Positions 18,842-28,476 of a stretch of 32,000 nucleotides of DNA are shown piece after piece. Position 1 is the first letter of the stretch. Every line of letters starts with the position of its first letter. A program made the translations under genes and the position numbers. The stretch is from Promethearchaeota archaeon (lineage in GTDB: Archaea > Asgardarchaeota > Lokiarchaeia > Sigyniarchaeales > SOKP01): the NCBI GenBank assembly GCA_030606485.1, contig JAUWGH010000001.1, positions 600,001-632,000 of the forward strand, written 5' to 3'. The notes under the pieces are model-generated. The model ran no database searches and was not told the DNA's origin. It saw only the letters and a program-made list of their open reading frames with translations.

Positions 18842-19606
18842 TTACAGTTTTTTTCGATTTACTATCTCCTTAATAGCAAAAGTGGCTACATCTTCAGCAT
18901 ATTTGTTGGGTCCAAATCCTGCATCATATCCTAATTCTTTTGCTAGTTCATGAGTTATTCTAGGACCTCCACAAACCAGAATAACCTTATCTCTTAACCC
19001 TTCACCTTCTAAAAGATCTACAAGCTGTGTTAAATTTTTTAAATGAATATCTTTTTGAGTAACAGTCTGAGATACAAGTAATACATCAGCTTTCAACTCT
19101 AAAGCTCTTTTAATAAACTCTTCATTTGGTACTTGACTACCCATATTATAAGCTTCTACCATTTCATAGCTTTCAAGCCCGTAATGACCTTTATATCCTT
19201 TCCTATTTATTATAGCATCTATGCCTACGGTGTGTGCATCTGTTCCAGTTGTTGCTCCAAGTATTATAATTTTTCGTTCAATATTTTCTTTTATATATTC
19301 ATTTATTTGCTCTCTAGCCATAATTTCTTTATCTATTGCATCTAAATGAATTTCCGTATAATCTATAGTTTGATTTAATCTTCCATAAACAACAAAATAG
19401 GTAAATCCTTTATCTAGAGGACAATGATATACAACAGAGGGATTTTTTACCCCCATTTTTCTAGTCAATATTTTTGCAGCCACTATAGCTTTTTCATCGT
19501 CTTCTACTGGAAGTGTAAAACTAATTTGCACTTTTCCGTCATTAAAAGTATCTCCATATGGCTTAATTTTTGTCAAATCAAGGGTTTTATCAAATTTATT
19601 ATTCAT
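18842..19606 (-). CDS. kamE: D-lysine/beta-lysine 5,6-aminomutase beta subunit (B12-binding)
   Basis: IKPYGDTFNDGKVQISFTLP, DAHTVGIDAI (DxHxxG), KGYKGHYGLE (PLP lysine region) and LLVSQTVTQKDIH. Confidence 0.95.
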   Translation of the reverse strand: MNNKFDKTLDLTKIKPYGDTFNDGKVQISFTLPVEDDEKAIVAAKILTRKMGVKNPSVVYHCPLDKGFTYFVVYGRLNQTIDYTEIHLDAIDKEIMAREQINEYIKENIERKIIILGATTGTDAHTVGIDAIINRKGYKGHYGLESYEMVEAYNMGSQVPNEEFIKRALELKADVLLVSQTVTQKDIHLKNLTQLVDLLEGEGLRDKVILVCGGPRITHELAKELGYDAGFGPNKYAEDVATFAIKEIVNRKKL

Positions 19607-19613
19607 ATTTCTT

Positions 19614-19619
19614 CTCCTT
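19614..19619 (-). promoter_or_regulatory. Shine-Dalgarno AAGGAG upstream of kamE
   Basis: Reverse strand reads AAGGAG, then 7 nt, then the ATG at 19606. Confidence 0.6.
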
Positions 19620-19651
19620 AATATTATTTAATTAGTAAATAACAAATAATT

Positions 19652-21235
19652 CTAAATTGGATTTTCTTGAACCATTAATTCAATAAATGGATTAAAATAA
19701 TCCTTTTCTTTTTCAAACACACCTTCCAAACCTTTACCACCGTTTATTTTCCTCTTTATTCCAGCAAATATTCCCTTTTCGATTGTGCTGAATAAACCTT
19801 CTTTTTCTATTTCTTTCAAAAGTGAATAAGCTTTATTTAAAACTTCATTAACTCTTTTTTCCATTATTCCACCTTGTTTAAAAGCAATTTCCTCTCCTAA
19901 AGATTTCATATTATTGAAAATATATTTCGCATTTTCTATAGATAATGCTCTATCAGACATAAAAGGAGTGTGTATGGCTTCGGTTAACATTCCAAGTAGA
20001 TGAATTTTCTGATTAGTCATAATAGTTATCATATTAAATAAAGCGTTTTGAATATGGCCCTTAAAGATATTTCCTGACATAAACTTTGTTGGGGGCATAT
20101 ATTTTAAGGGGGCTTTAGGAAATATTTCTCTTGCCATTTGAGCTTGTGCAAGTTCATATAAAAATCCGTTTTCCAACTCAGGATTCATTTCAAAAGCATG
20201 ACCCAAACCAAGTTGTTCTTCTTTTAAACCAGCAAGTAGAGCAAATTGTTCATTTATAAATTGAGAAGCAAGCACGGTATGAGCTGCTTCAAATGCATCA
20301 TCTGTAGTTAAATAATTGTCTTCTCCAGTATTTATAATGACACCTGCAAATGCATTAATCATCCTTGAAAAATATTGATCAATAATAGTTCTTTTCATAT
20401 TAATATCTCTAAATAATATTCCATAAAGAGCATCATTAAGCATCACATCAAGTCTCTCAAATGCTCCCATAGCAGCTATTTCAGGCATGCAAAGTCCAGA
20501 ACAGTAATTAGTTAATCTTATATATCTTCCCAATTCTTCTCCAACTTCATCTAAAGCTTTTCTCATAAGCCTAAAGTTTTCTTGGGTTGCATAAGTACCA
20601 CCAAATCCTTCTGTTGTCGCACCATAAGGCACATAATCAAGAAGACTCTGTCCAGTAGATCTAATAACTGCAATGATATCTGCTCCTTGTTTTGCGGCAG
20701 CTTTTGCTTGAGTGATATCTTCATAGATATTCCCCGTTGCAACAATTATATATAAAAGAGGTCCTTCCTTCTCACCAAATTTTTCAAGATAAGCTTCTCT
20801 CTTTTTTTTATTATTTATTATTTTTTCTAAAGTTTGTTTAGTTAATTTGGTTATAGTTATCTTTATTTCAGATAAATCATTCATCGGAAGTTTTGTCAGA
20901 TCAAGTTCATCTTTTGATATTTTTTCTGCAATCTCTTGAGGGGATAATCTTTTTTGGAGAATTGCATTTCCAATAAAGATAGCCACACCTTTTCCAAGCC
21001 CCTTATCCTTTTTAATATTATTAACAACTACATTCGGTAAAGGAACCCCAAACTCATCTACTCCATCTATACCAAGTAATCTACAGACAGTTCTTTCAAT
21101 TGAGGTTGTAGTGTGTTTATCTATAAATTTTTGGGTGTCTAAAGCAATAGTTTTTGCTGTCTCTCTTGCTTTTTTTACTATTGAGAAATCTAAATTCAAT
21201 TTGCTATTTACTGCTTTATTAATCAATTTTTTCAC
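19652..21235 (-). CDS. kamD: D-lysine/beta-lysine 5,6-aminomutase alpha subunit
   Basis: SKLNLDF, ERTVCRLLGIDGVD, VATGNIYED, RSTGQSLLDYVPYG, NYCSGLCMPEIA, LNDALYGILFRDIN, KYMPPTK and GMLTEAIHTP. GTG start, uncertain. Confidence 0.95.
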   Translation of the reverse strand: MKKLINKAVNSKLNLDFSIVKKARETAKTIALDTQKFIDKHTTTSIERTVCRLLGIDGVDEFGVPLPNVVVNNIKKDKGLGKGVAIFIGNAILQKRLSPQEIAEKISKDELDLTKLPMNDLSEIKITITKLTKQTLEKIINNKKKREAYLEKFGEKEGPLLYIIVATGNIYEDITQAKAAAKQGADIIAVIRSTGQSLLDYVPYGATTEGFGGTYATQENFRLMRKALDEVGEELGRYIRLTNYCSGLCMPEIAAMGAFERLDVMLNDALYGILFRDINMKRTIIDQYFSRMINAFAGVIINTGEDNYLTTDDAFEAAHTVLASQFINEQFALLAGLKEEQLGLGHAFEMNPELENGFLYELAQAQMAREIFPKAPLKYMPPTKFMSGNIFKGHIQNALFNMITIMTNQKIHLLGMLTEAIHTPFMSDRALSIENAKYIFNNMKSLGEEIAFKQGGIMEKRVNEVLNKAYSLLKEIEKEGLFSTIEKGIFAGIKRKINGGKGLEGVFEKEKDYFNPFIELMVQENPI

Positions 21236-26488: not shown

Positions 26489-26863
26489 TTATGATATTTC
26501 AGATCTTATCCTAATTTGATTAGGTTCTATTATAATTATTTTCCCAGATGATTCTTCTAAGGGAAAGCTTTTTAAAAATCTCTCAAACAGTTCTTTTACA
26601 GCATTCTTACCTTGCTTTTTTGATCTCATTATTATAATTCCATAAAAATTATCAGTAGGATTAATAAAATCTGCGTTTAATGTAATTAATAATCGTTTTT
26701 CTTCAAAACATTTTATAATCAAACTCTTATCGTCGATACCTGAAATATTTTCATGAAAAACAGAATCCACTTCATGTTGCCCAATATTCTCAATTACTTT
26801 TTTCAAAATCCAAGGTACATTTTCATCTAATTTGAACTTCACTTTTTTATCCCTGATCTTCAA
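26489..26863 (-). CDS. DUF5615 family PIN-like toxin (VapC45-like); likely start is GTG at 26842
   Basis: [22 protein letters not shown] and [10 protein letters not shown]. Directly follows a DUF433 gene. Confidence 0.8.
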
Positions 26864-27092
26864 TCAATGGGAGTATTTTTTCTTTAGCTAACATAGCTCC
26901 GTAATGAAGTGCTGCTTGAATATGTTCCTTTTTTAGTGAAGGATAGTTTTCTAATATCTCATCATCCGACATTCCTTCCGCTAAACAATCTAAAATTATT
27001 GAAACAAACACTCTAGTGCCTTTAATACAAGCTTTCCCATGACATATTTTTGGATCAAATGTGATATATTCTTTCCAAATCATTAAACTCAC
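26847..27092 (-). CDS. DUF433 family antitoxin; likely start is ATG at 27083
   Basis: [40 protein letters not shown] and IQAALHY. Confidence 0.9.
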
Positions 27093-27231
27093 TATGATAA
27101 TAGATAATATTAAGTTATATAATTTTAATTTTTATAATAATTCTCAGGAATAAATATTTTTTAACCAGTATTCAGAAATAAGAATTATTTTGAATTTTTA
27201 AATTGTAAGATAAAATTAAAGTCTAAAGAAA

Positions 27232-28476
27232 TTATAATAATTTTTTGCATTCATTTAAAGATTCTTTAATCATATTGGCAGCATGATCCAAATCTTCATC
27301 AGTATGTCGATAACATACATAACCATGATGATATGGTTGAAGGAATATACGCCGACGAATTAACTGTGTATAAAATTCTTCACGCAATTTTTTATATAAA
27401 AAGTTTGGATCACGTTGAAAAGTGATATAAGGCATCCAAGGATCACCTGAAAATGTGCATGGAATACCACTATCTTTTATGATATCTTTAACCTTAGATG
27501 CAAAACGACTCCCTCTTTCATTAATAACGTCTAAAACCATTTCTCGCTCTAAAATTTCAATAGTTTTAAGTGCCGCTACTTGAGCAAGACTATTTGGCCA
27601 AAATGTAGAAGTAATAAATACTTTTTCGATTAAAGCATCCATATATTCTTTTTTACCGACACAAACACTGATCGGATAACCATTTGCCATTGATTTTCCA
27701 AATGCGGCAAGATCCGGAATCACATCAAATTTTTTTTGGGCACCCCCCAAATTTACACGAAAACCTGTACGAATTTCATCATAAATTAAAAGAGAGTCAT
27801 ATTTAGTTGCCAACTTGCGAATACCTTTTAAAAAACCAGGTTTAGGCATCTGAACTTCATGACCTCCTTGATGATCGATAGGGGTTAAAATAATTGCTGC
27901 TACATCATTACCATACTGTCCCATTATGTTTTCAGCTTGATCAAGGTTATTGTATTCAAATTCATAAACATCTTCAAAAGACTTTTTAGGAATTCCACCT
28001 TTTTGTTCAACACACCAACTATGCCACCCATGATAACCACAACGAAGCACCTTTATCCGTCCTGTATATCCACGAGCAACACGAATAGCAATAGTTGTTG
28101 CCTCAGAACCGGTTTTTACAAAAACTGCTTTCTCACAGCATGGAATTAATTCAATCAATTTCTTTGCTAATTTATTTTGAACCTGTTGGGTTAATGACAT
28201 GCAAAACCCTTTATTTTTTATCTGTTGTATTACAACATCATCAATTTCTTCTTCCCGATGACCAATAATAATCGGACCATAAGCGCAAAGCATATCAAGA
28301 AATTCATTACCATCTACATCAATGACTTTTCCTCCTTTACCCTTTTCAAAGAAGATTGGATATTCTCCCTCTACAAAATTATAAGGGCGACGGATTCCTA
28401 ATATGGCACCAGGAATAAGTTTCAAAGCATCTTCATACAATTGATTTGATTTTTCCAACTTTAATTTTTTAGCCAA
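27232..28476 (-). CDS. kat: 3-aminobutyryl-CoA aminotransferase (class III PLP, Kat-like)
   Basis: Class III motifs LIYDEIRTGFR and AFGKSMANG. GIRRPYNFVEGEYPIFF and FLQPYHHGYVCYRHTDEDL match Kat of Ca. Cloacamonas acidaminovorans as I recall it, and the gene sits next to kce. Start placed at the second TTG (28476), 7 nt after an AAGGGAG SD, rather than at 28482. Confidence 0.85.
   Translation of the reverse strand: MAKKLKLEKSNQLYEDALKLIPGAILGIRRPYNFVEGEYPIFFEKGKGGKVIDVDGNEFLDMLCAYGPIIIGHREEEIDDVVIQQIKNKGFCMSLTQQVQNKLAKKLIELIPCCEKAVFVKTGSEATTIAIRVARGYTGRIKVLRCGYHGWHSWCVEQKGGIPKKSFEDVYEFEYNNLDQAENIMGQYGNDVAAIILTPIDHQGGHEVQMPKPGFLKGIRKLATKYDSLLIYDEIRTGFRVNLGGAQKKFDVIPDLAAFGKSMANGYPISVCVGKKEYMDALIEKVFITSTFWPNSLAQVAALKTIEILEREMVLDVINERGSRFASKVKDIIKDSGIPCTFSGDPWMPYITFQRDPNFLYKKLREEFYTQLIRRRIFLQPYHHGYVCYRHTDEDLDHAANMIKESLNECKKLL

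Follow-up and report, generated by a model that had tools for sequence, protein, structure and literature searches.

Two versions of the anaerobic lysine-fermentation pathway, the Kal version and the Kat version, were known beforehand. The Kat type was described as an alternative lysine fermentation in 'Ca. Cloacamonas acidaminovorans' and in a Bacteroidetes genome from a digester; Kat activity was measured in the Cloacimonadota and Bacteroidota enzymes, which are ~65% identical to each other, and a butyrate branch was retained within the pathway (Perret et al. 2011, PMC3149608). Among archaea, Kal-type lysine degradation was tabulated for MK-D1, with expression values for its genes (Supplementary Table 4 in Imachi et al. 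2020, PMC7015854), and putative Kat and Kal were annotated in deep-sea sediment Thaumarchaeota whose genomes do not contain the rest of the pathway, for which scavenging of intermediates was proposed (Kerou et al. 2021, PMC8397731). We consider it highly probable (roughly 0.85) that the window analysed here, a stretch of 32,000 nucleotides located at 600-632 kb of contig C10, carries a Kat-type anaerobic lysine-fermentation operon that is chromosomal and vertically inherited in a Lokiarchaeon, with Kat replacing Kal.

Gene content and boundaries of the locus

The genome (3.75 Mb, 13 contigs, 100% complete, 4.65% contaminated) belongs to the same order as Ca. Lokiarchaeum ossiferum (6,035,313 bp), and archaeal or eukaryote-like genes, encoding an actin-family protein and a DRG GTPase, flank the cluster on both sides. 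The host is a Lokiarchaeon, in agreement with the Asgard host proposed in the preliminary description of this DNA. The source habitat of the archaeon is cold-seep and marine sediments.

Ten ORFs, all on the minus strand with spacers of 30-139 nt, occupy positions 18842-28482 in the order kat, the DUF433/DUF5615 pair, kce, a SAM methyltransferase gene, kdd, kamA, kamB, kamD and kamE. Family calls were made using NCBIfam equivalog models with curated cut-offs and Pfam domains, and the ORF, Pfam and NCBIfam matches bore out the gene order given earlier; the location given for kat also stood, while its limit did not, as the ORF extends to a TTG start at 28482 rather than to 28476. Six enzymes, Kce, Kdd, KamA, KamB, KamD and KamE, exceeded the equivalog cut-offs. 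The kce product (25556..26380, minus strand) scored 441 bits with NF052387 (cut-off 382) and 352 bits with Pfam BKACE, of which the genome encodes four more paralogues. The kdd product (23715..24752, minus strand), L-erythro-3,5-diaminohexanoate dehydrogenase of 345 aa, scored 274 bits with NF052381 (cut-off 200). Lysine 2,3-aminomutase KamA (22429..23673, minus strand; 414 aa; NCBIfam name KamA/AblA), a radical SAM protein with the Pfam domains Radical_SAM and LAM_C, scored 626 bits with TIGR03820 (cut-off 525), and KamB (21336..22367, minus strand; 343 aa), the lysine 5,6-aminomutase reactivase subunit, scored 401 bits with NF052386 (cut-off 210). KamD (19652..21235, minus strand) scored 939 bits with NF052384 (cut-off 600) and 914 bits with Pfam Lys-AminoMut_A, and KamE (18842..19606, minus strand) scored 389 bits with NF052385 (cut-off 280) and contains Pfam OAM_dimer and B12-binding domains. 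The lysine-fermentation operon is apparently complete.

The operon has no kamC after kamB, and the only related match in the genome, located elsewhere, is MutS-like (27-28%). The earlier gene list implied this absence and did not state it. Because the operon is without the KamC reactivase ATPase, sustained KamDE activity is uncertain. The tetrapyrrole pathway was not found in the genome, so the B12 for KamDE must be salvaged.

Between kat and kce lie the genes for an antitoxin-like DUF433 protein of 81 aa (26847..27092, minus strand; Pfam DUF433, 88.7 bits) and a toxin-like DUF5615 partner of 124 aa (26489..26863, minus strand; Pfam DUF5615, 46.7 bits), which overlap by 17 nt. G325 (90% identity in DUF433) and G346 also carry the pair between kat and kce, scaffolds L120 and L121 lack it, and in contigs of X5 and X20 it is missing, with 8 bp in place of 26391-27230. 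The class-I SAM-dependent methyltransferase of 235 aa (24818..25525, minus strand; Pfam Methyltransf_25/31/11), which reached no NCBIfam equivalog model, was also encoded between kce and kdd in the Kal-type clusters of G040, G327 and G252 and the Kat-type clusters of G325, G113, G083 and G276, and was absent from G129, G346, G213, L120, L121, every second-family genome and the bacterial loci. The earlier toxin-antitoxin and methyltransferase calls are correct, since Pfam matches were obtained at those ORFs (26489-27092 and 24818-25525). The methyltransferase is an accessory insertion, as is the toxin-antitoxin-like pair, which stands outside the pathway.

The locus is bordered by two conserved flanks on the plus strand, folD (28695..29570; Pfam THF_DHG_CYH) at one edge and a prenyltransferase-fold gene (17675..18841; Pfam Prenyltrans), convergent with kamE with zero gap, at the other. 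The folD-orf151-DRG flank recurs next to kal in G040 and G129 and next to kat in L120 and L121, and the prenyltransferase-fold flank, followed by the actin-family gene, was also present in G129, G177, L120 and L121. The GC content of the cluster (28-33%) matches that of the flanking DNA. Contig continuity is sound: the window lies 600 kb inside the contig, both cluster junctions are bridged by independent assemblies, and an independent subsurface-metagenome contig from 2017 (4,230 bp) spans the methyltransferase gene, kce, the DUF433/DUF5615 pair, kat and folD at ~99% identity.

Alternation of Kat and Kal in the order

The absence of kal, noted earlier for the window, extends to the entire genome, where NF052388 gave no match; the same model detected Kal above cut-off in 24 related genomes. 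The proposal that kat occupies the kal position was confirmed by the congeners G040 and G129, which have the same flanks and carry kal at the exact site of kat plus the DUF433/DUF5615 pair. In kce, kdd and kam, these congeners share 87-96% identity with the window (Kce 92% in both), and identity of the pathway genes drops with taxonomic distance, to ~75-79% in g4 and ~65-76% in the other family. Scaffolds L120 and L121 have the same flanks with kat immediately abutting kce.

KamD was present in 72 of the 131 genomes of the order. Forty-five of these had Kat only, 21 had Kal only, one (Ca. L. ossiferum) had both, and five, all fragmented assemblies, had neither; the four Kat-positive, KamD-negative genomes all had Kdd. 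This comparison of related genomes, from the congeneric loci to the tally, is the strongest evidence obtained. Across the order, Kat and Kal alternate at a single site upstream of kce and almost exclude one another there, and this either/or pattern is the more interesting aspect of the locus. The likeliest ancestor had both Kat and Kal, as Ca. L. ossiferum still has. KamD and Kat were found in 2 of 30 sampled Asgard families and in none of 226 genomes elsewhere.

Alternative explanations

The 416-aa product of kat (27232..28482, minus strand; Pfam Aminotran_3, 176 bits) is a class-III PLP enzyme and the candidate 3-aminobutyryl-CoA:2-oxoglutarate aminotransferase. It is scarcely credible that it is instead a true HemL or another housekeeping class-III enzyme, leaving the pathway to end at 3-aminobutyryl-CoA or with an unknown enzyme, even though HemL models are its top NCBIfam matches, its best PDB matches are HemL structures, many database records name its homologues HemL, and it shares with HemL a common fold, ~30-35% full-length identity and the PLP residues (its K263 and D235 correspond in the alignment to the catalytic Lys and Asp of GSA aminomutase structures). 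All HemL models score below cut-off (273 versus 398 and 266 versus 527 bits), 11-12 residues of a loop carried by all five aligned GSA aminomutase structures are missing, and at this site the candidate aligns gap-free with the true aminotransferase 6hbs; ALAD/HemB (porphobilinogen synthase) was not found in this genome and four related genomes. In the tree, the candidate was placed inside a 57-sequence Kat family (SH-aLRT 96), away from outgroups 33-38% identical to it, and within a 31-sequence subclade (SH-aLRT 96) containing Bacteroidota, Cloacimonadota and Elusimicrobiota Kats, separate from a deltaproteobacterial group that has no lysine genes. The candidate shares 62-68% identity with Cloacimonadota- and Bacteroidota-labelled Kats, which served as proxies for the characterised CLOAM0809 and DIG1_60031 and are 66-73% identical between these phyla. 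The kat-kce adjacency is kept across two domains, and the near-exclusivity with Kal also argues against HemL. Judged from sequence, the aminotransferase is Kat, not HemL. Family membership alone leaves the substrate unfixed, because deltaproteobacterial Kat homologues of 55-60% identity have no lysine genes nearby; strain NaphS2 likewise has a Kat homologue without lysine genes, and the Kat of Perret et al. also took beta-homoleucyl and beta-phenylalanyl thioester mimics (Perret et al. 2011, PMC3149608). Such promiscuity, together with the further BKACE paralogues, would fit an enzyme acting on a different beta-aminoacyl-CoA in a cluster that handles other beta-amino acids besides or instead of the lysine intermediate. 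However, we find this quite unlikely, given that Kat tightly adjoins a Kce passing the Kce-specific equivalog cut-off and replaces Kal one for one. To our knowledge, 3-aminobutyryl-CoA is the only substrate of Kal.

The pathway proteins are, per enzyme, 61-69% identical to homologues of the digester Bacteroidetes MAG L006, with which the order kat-kce-kdd-kamA-kamB-(kamC)-kamD-kamE is colinear, and 28 of the 30 sampled Asgard families lack the pathway, as might be expected if the block had recently been acquired by horizontal transfer from an anaerobic bacterium or were a misbinned or misassembled bacterial fragment. Either is very improbable in view of the position deep inside the contig, the archaeal or eukaryote-like flanks, the flank-like GC, synteny shared with five or more related genomes or scaffolds, with identities following taxonomy, and the bridged junctions, and both were rejected. 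Misassembly, named earlier as a possible flaw, is thereby ruled out; the earlier suggestion of a block acquired from anaerobic bacteria does not hold for a recent event, and a bacterial origin is plausible only for the ancestor of the order holding the cluster. The cluster appears from these comparisons to be chromosomal, vertically inherited and old within one Asgard order, and an ancient transfer into the ancestor of the order agrees with the data and is included in the best explanation. It is unlikely that the operon is crippled, carrying negligible lysine flux for want of KamC reactivation and a good acetoacetate CoA-transferase, and is decaying or serving another beta-amino acid. The 5,6-aminomutase undergoes suicide inactivation and requires reactivation, and the missing KamC, a weak CoA_trans pair (see below) and a kce called as two ORFs in the related scaffold L121 would fit such a reading. 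In contrast, the nine core ORFs are intact with full-length scores, and the whole first family is without clustered kamC yet conserves kamB, kamD and kamE across genera; kamC is likewise missing between kamB and kamD in the Kat-type clusters of Pelosinus and Bacillota. As these clusters are conserved without kamC, the sequences point to a workable KamC-less 5,6-aminomutase system.

Predicted pathway and comparison with known systems

On family assignment, KamA would convert L-lysine to beta-lysine, KamDE, with adenosylcobalamin and PLP, would convert beta-lysine to 3,5-diaminohexanoate, Kdd would oxidize this to 3-keto-5-aminohexanoate, and Kce would use acetyl-CoA to form acetoacetate and 3-aminobutyryl-CoA. 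Phylogeny, synteny and complementarity with Kal suggest that Kat transfers the beta-amino group to 2-oxoglutarate, yielding acetoacetyl-CoA and glutamate, a step that would stand in for the Kal lyase step of sister species. The genome encodes glutamate dehydrogenase (275 bits), which may regenerate 2-oxoglutarate, and thiolase (273 bits), which may convert acetoacetyl-CoA to 2 acetyl-CoA and so allow ATP to be formed. Some of the acetoacetyl-CoA may still be reduced via Hbd, crotonase and Bcd-Etf; genes for crotonase, 3-hydroxybutyryl-CoA dehydrogenase and acyl-CoA dehydrogenase are adjacent in the genome, which also has a Bcd-Etf pair. By stoichiometric reasoning, Kal plus crotonase plus Hbd would give the net reaction of Kat plus glutamate dehydrogenase. 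The preliminary description envisaged a route without the butyrate electron sink, consistent with a syntrophic lifestyle. The lack of such a sink does not follow, since the genome has crt, hbd, bcd and etf, and Kat is no marker of syntrophy, as the Kal route is tabulated for the cultured syntroph MK-D1. Activation of acetoacetate is the least secure step, because the CoA-transferase search suggested in that description found a CoA_trans pair that is weak (56 and 33 bits) and no strong AtoDA pair. Strong AtoDA pairs were found in G040, G210 and Ca. L. ossiferum, in the last ~2 kb from kat-kce.

The Cloacamonas and digester Bacteroidetes Kat pathway (PMC3149608) resembles the present one in the absence of kal, the HemL-like class-III aminotransferase gene at the kal position beside kce, the common core of kamA, kamD, kamE, kdd and kce, and the availability of glutamate dehydrogenase and thiolase. 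The Lokiarchaeon cluster differs in its archaeal host, the lack of kamC and of a clear AtoDA pair, and the inserted toxin-antitoxin-like pair and methyltransferase; Hbd and crotonase are present, whereas Perret et al. did not find them in Cloacamonas. The Fusobacterium/Clostridium cluster (Figs 1-2 in PMC3149608) shares the five common enzymes and has the same overall arrangement, in which the deaminating enzyme is encoded on the side of kce. There, Kal lyase produces crotonyl-CoA and a butyryl-CoA-to-acetoacetate CoA-transfer loop is obligatory, whereas the putative transaminase here would lead directly to acetoacetyl-CoA. MK-D1, of the same archaeal order (PMC7015854), also has kamA, kamD, kamE, kdd and kce, but its table contains kal (DSAG12_00569) and not Kat, the reverse of the present genome, as well as AtoDA-like CoA transferases and a MutS2-like gene between kamB and kamD, where kamC is absent here. 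The Thaumarchaeota (PMC8397731) are likewise archaea annotated with Kat or Kal; the sole thaumarchaeotal sequence in our tree (L060, 35% identity) fell outside the Kat clade, whereas the Lokiarchaeon has the entire pathway and its protein lies inside that clade.

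The operon and its host

Ten ORFs separated by spacers of 30-139 nt run on the minus strand from 28482 to 18842 of the window. Six enzymes were named by NCBIfam equivalog models, each scoring above its curated cut-off (in parentheses, bits and cut-off): KamE at 18842-19606 (389, 280), KamD at 19652-21235 (939, 600), KamB at 21336-22367 (401, 210), KamA at 22429-23673 (626, 525), Kdd at 23715-24752 (274, 200), and Kce at 25556-26380 (441, 382). The core set for lysine fermentation through 3,5-diaminohexanoate, namely KamA, KamD, KamE, Kdd, and Kce, is therein complete, all five being above the equivalog cut-offs. 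The other ORFs on the same strand were assigned using Pfam to a class-I SAM methyltransferase (24818-25525), a DUF5615/DUF433 pair of overlapping, toxin-antitoxin-like ORFs (26489-27092), and a class-III aminotransferase encoded by kat (27232-28482; PF00202, 176 bits). NCBIfam equivalogs and Pfam agree with the gene list of the preliminary description, in which the kat ORF was correctly called but ended six bases short.

The host, previously described as a probable Asgard archaeon, is a Lokiarchaeon, as indicated by the flanking genes and by an order in common with Ca. Lokiarchaeum ossiferum. The flanks encode an actin-family protein with zinc ribbons, a prenyltransferase-fold protein, FolD, and a DRG-type GTPase; the GC content across the window is 23-34%, and the cluster shows no compositional break. 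The genome (3.75 Mb in 13 contigs) was scored at 100% completeness and 4.65% contamination. An independent run of 2017 gave a 4,230-bp contig spanning methyltransferase-kce-toxin/antitoxin-kat-folD at ~99% identity, other independent contigs span kamD to kce and kat to past folD, and the stretch from kat to the methyltransferase gene was found in cold-seep, marine-sediment, and subsurface metagenomes (about 9 or 10 studies). Because independent metagenome contigs span the junctions of the cluster, the continuity of the contig, left for checking in the preliminary description, is confirmed, and misassembly is excluded. What the Lokiarchaeon carries on its chromosome is a genuine and intact lysine fermentation operon of the Kat type.

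Two components of the operon vary among related loci. The toxin-antitoxin-like cassette is polymorphic in nature: in contigs of the sequencing runs X5 (depth 44) and X20, position 26390 is joined to 27231, the 840 bp between them (26391-27230) being replaced by 8 other letters. No RNA data set is listed as containing the stretch, and run X20, labelled RNA-Seq, is probably DNA and covers small pieces of it only. In two independent related metagenome scaffolds, L120 and L121, whose Kat is 84-85% identical to that of the window, the flanks are the same and kat abuts kce, with neither the toxin-antitoxin pair nor the methyltransferase gene, while in G325 and G346, genomes of other genera, the cassette occupies the same kat-kce spacer in the order kat-DUF433-DUF5615-kce. 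The methyltransferase gene occurs in Kal- and Kat-type clusters of the window's family (G040, G327, G252, G325, G113, G083, and G276) and is missing from G129, G346, G213, both scaffolds, all genomes of the second KamD-bearing family of the order, and all bacterial loci. Given this patchy distribution, it is accessory and not required for the pathway. In L121, a JGI scaffold, gene calling splits kce into ORFs of 69 and 188 aa (11209-11981), possibly a frameshift or sequencing error, and an 806-aa DUF6259 protein is inserted in the kamA-kamB gap (L121:14461-16881).

Assignment of the aminotransferase

The alternative product of the class-III aminotransferase gene is HemL (GSA 2,1-aminomutase). 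HemL models were its best NCBIfam matches, yet all scored far under their cut-offs (NF000818, 273 vs 398; TIGR00713, 266 vs 527; PRK12389, 228 vs 637). K263 and D235, the Schiff-base lysine and PLP-binding aspartate expected of a class-III enzyme, are invariant in alignment A1 and fall in the columns of the catalytic Lys and Asp when aligned with solved GSA aminomutases. Alignment with the structures 3bs8, 3k28, 3l44, and 2hoy left an 11-12-residue gap after the YHGW motif, in a segment kept in every HemL structure aligned, whereas the alignment with a genuine aminotransferase, 6hbs, was gap-free at this position. The missing loop after the YHG motif presumably gates the HemL active site. Porphobilinogen synthase (PF00490) had no match in the 100% complete genome of the window or in four relatives, while a control search was positive for 11 of 14 reference genomes; therefore, any HemL product would have no onward route. 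The same missing-pathway argument was applied to Cloacamonas by Perret et al. 2011 (PMC3149608).

When 1.84 billion representatives were searched exhaustively, one match stood out, P0121 (58% identity, 569 bits); no further full-length match exceeded 45% identity or 342 bits. A scan of named species genomes added relatives in a digester Bacteroidetes MAG, Cloacimonadota, and Elusimicrobiota, at 62-64% identity. In an IQ-TREE phylogeny of 86 sequences, a Kat family of 57 sequences was recovered (SH-aLRT 96), containing a 31-sequence subclade (SH-aLRT 96) that comprises all 26 Asgard sequences together with digester Bacteroidetes, Cloacimonadota, and Elusimicrobiota. This subclade is apart from two other bacterial clades, one deltaproteobacterial and lacking lysine genes, the other of Bacillota/Spirochaetota/Actinomycetota and having them, and from outgroups of 33-38% identity. 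Asgard monophyly in the tree was poorly supported (68), with an Elusimicrobiota pair in a polytomy, so we make no claim on a single donor or on the number of transfers.

Activity was measured for one Kat each from Cloacimonadota (WWE1) and digester Bacteroidetes, which are ~65% identical, a kcat/Km of 4.2 x 10^5 per M per s being given for the activity, and the reaction (EC 2.6.1.111) is the transamination between 3-aminobutyryl-CoA and 2-oxoglutarate, for which the thioester moiety is required (Perret et al. 2011, PMC3149608). The Kat of the window shares 62-67% identity with proteins labelled Cloacimonadota and 65-68% with those labelled Bacteroidales, and identity between these two groups is 66-73%; the main caveat on the assignment is that these phylum-labelled relatives stand in for the assayed CLOAM0809 and DIG1_60031. 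The gene is linked to kce and the other lysine fermentation genes in a genome without kal. HemL cut-offs, the loop, the absence of porphobilinogen synthase, and the tree all agree in pointing to Kat rather than HemL as the probable identity of the enzyme, as first proposed. The JGI pipeline already tags some Kat homologues "3-aminobutanoyl-CoA transaminase".

Alternation of kat and kal

Two species of the window's genus, G040 and G129, have the same locus, bounded by DRG-orf151-FolD on one side and prenyltransferase-actin on the other, and their kce, kdd, kamA, kamB, kamD, and kamE products are 87-96% identical to those of the window. Both carry a bona fide kal (197 bits vs a cut-off of 160), encoding a lyase acting on the same intermediate, at the exact site of the window's kat-DUF433-DUF5615, which confirms the earlier placement of kat at the kal position. 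In Ca. L. ossiferum, both genes are present, in the order kal, a 1,106-aa gene, kat, and kce, with an AtoD/AtoA CoA-transferase pair ~2 kb further. The 1,106-aa ORF (L106:5400-8720) separating kal from kat is encoded on the other strand and has no Pfam match. About 1 kb upstream of kal is a 551-aa ORF (L106:2299-3954; about 3,072,298-3,073,953 on contig C1 of this genome) matching the shoulder domain of the Major Vault Protein (92 bits) as well as vault repeat domains, a eukaryote-type protein family. Among bacteria, the digester Bacteroidetes MAG L006 has the order kat-kce-kdd-kamA-kamB-kamC-kamD-kamE, with proteins 61-69% identical to those of the window except KamB (27%), and kat adjoins kce, kdd, or kam genes in Pelosinus, Treponema, Bacillota, Actinomycetes, and other MAGs.

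In a sample of 131 genomes of the order, KamD was detected in 72, Kat in 50, and Kal in 24. The 72 KamD-positive genomes comprised 45 with Kat only, 21 with Kal only, one, Ca. L. ossiferum, with both, and five with neither, these five all being fragmented assemblies. A role of Kat unrelated to lysine was considered for the four genomes with Kat but no KamD and was rejected, as all four have Kdd above the cut-off, in G083 on the same contig, which breaks off there; the lack of KamD is treated as an assembly gap. In a phylum-level sample of 301 genomes, Kat was found in 27/68 and 5/7 and KamD in 40/68 and 6/7 genomes of two families of the order, and neither was found in the 226 genomes of 28 other families. 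A wider spread in Asgard archaea, suggested by the NCBI labels 'Thorarchaeota' and 'Hodarchaeota' on some homologues, was also rejected: in the tree these proteins are identical to or nested in sequences of the window's family, and the phylum-level sample had none outside the two families.

The order-wide, near-exclusive alternation of Kat and Kal at one site corrects the preliminary reading of a block acquired from bacteria, if taken as a recent event, and that of a missing butyrate sink. Identities of Kat, Kal, and core genes drop alike with taxonomic distance, and Kat sequences form genus-level clades in the tree; therefore, both genes look old in the order. Both forms are nevertheless found within each of three genera. 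The simplest history is an ancestor with both Kat and Kal followed by differential loss; alternatively, repeated recombinational swapping at the site may have produced the pattern. Tentatively, with a probability of about one in three, Kal/Kat would be a long-lived, order-wide dimorphism in Lokiarchaeales, descended from a dual ancestor resembling Ca. L. ossiferum through repeated loss of one gene, even among species in three genera, or through same-site recombinational swaps, the choice being an adaptive nitrogen/redox switch in these syntrophic archaea. If such a dimorphism exists, the choice would set the fate of the lysine beta-amino nitrogen, as free ammonia or in the glutamate/2-oxoglutarate pool.

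Pathway closure and comparison with known systems

Closure of the pathway takes a thiolase and, in the Kat variant, a glutamate dehydrogenase, and both were found in the genome of the window: many thiolases (best Thiolase_N 273 bits, C5:128217) and a glutamate dehydrogenase (ELFV_dehydrog 275 bits, C10:292094). The genome also encodes thirteen acyl-CoA dehydrogenases, a crotonase-Hbd-ACAD cluster on C1, and a Bcd-Etf pair on C12. Given the crotonase-Hbd-ACAD and Bcd-Etf genes, the proposed loss of the butyrate sink through Kat is unsupported. By stoichiometric reasoning, the net oxidative deamination by Kal, crotonase, and Hbd is the same as that by Kat and glutamate dehydrogenase; the passage of nitrogen via glutamate differs, not the redox balance. 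Nor was Kat as a sign of syntrophy borne out, since the table for MK-D1, a syntroph in culture, lists the Kal route. With the same net reaction and the Kal route in MK-D1, Kat tells nothing particular about syntrophy.

The weak points of the pathway are the lack of KamC, a weak CoA-transferase-like pair, and B12 salvage. Of the two-subunit reactivase, KamB is present and KamC is missing from the cluster, the sole genomic match being a 27-28% identical MutS-like sequence (C6:241740-242636). This MutS-like ATPase (NF052383) is missing between kamB and kamD (21235-21336 in the window) in every cluster of the window's family examined, and is kept in the second-family clusters examined (Ca. L. ossiferum, G307, G210, and G089) except G162; it is also missing from some bacterial Kat-type clusters, in Pelosinus and a Bacillota MAG. 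The only candidates for acetoacetate activation in the genome are a weak PF01144 pair (55.5 and 33.1 bits; C12:118.7-121.1 kb, L118), whereas strong AtoDA-type pairs occur in G040, G210, and Ca. L. ossiferum. The two C12 ORFs, of 287 and 293 aa, have a nitroreductase-family gene between them and lie ~10 kb from the Bcd-Etf pair. The B12-dependent enzymes are KamDE and methylmalonyl-CoA mutase, the latter with MeaB on C12 (e.g. C12:126124-127797); as these are encoded and no porphobilinogen synthase was found in the genome, external corrinoids are needed. Four more paralogues of the Kce (BKACE) family, 29-38% identical to Kce, are located at C8:145298-146140, C8:205766-206620, C13:16849-17715, and C7:89899-90684, one of them with a stop codon.

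Among the relatives of eukaryotes, Lokiarchaeales have been studied best, and their strains in culture live by fermenting amino acids in syntrophy. The exact route of lysine breakdown matters for their metabolic models and for media design, and in the 131 genomes sampled, the Kat route outnumbers the Kal route tabulated for MK-D1 by about two to one, the two almost never co-occurring. Where annotation pipelines give the aminotransferase the label HemL or "aspartate aminotransferase family", this pathway step is therefore missed in about two-thirds of the sampled lysine-fermenting Lokiarchaea. Kal and kat are directly comparable in the culture of Ca. L. ossiferum.

In the literature covered, outside which most subscription journals fall, we found no report of a Kat-type pathway in Asgard archaea or of kal/kat alternation, Asgard lysine fermentation appearing only in a supplementary table of Imachi et al. 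2020 (PMC7015854), where "Lysine degradation" of MK-D1 is tabulated with kal and without Kat. The finding leaves the known chemistry as it was and carries no special message on syntrophy; what it adds is that Kat and Kal alternate across the order, almost exclusively, at a single site. Kat and its pathway variant were first defined from bacteria (Perret et al. 2011, PMC3149608), and this variant, known from uncultured bacteria only, is here extended to Archaea. Putative Kat and Kal were annotated in Thaumarchaeota without the remaining pathway (Kerou et al. 2021, PMC8397731), whereas in the Lokiarchaeon of the window KamA, KamD, KamE, Kdd, and Kce are all present.
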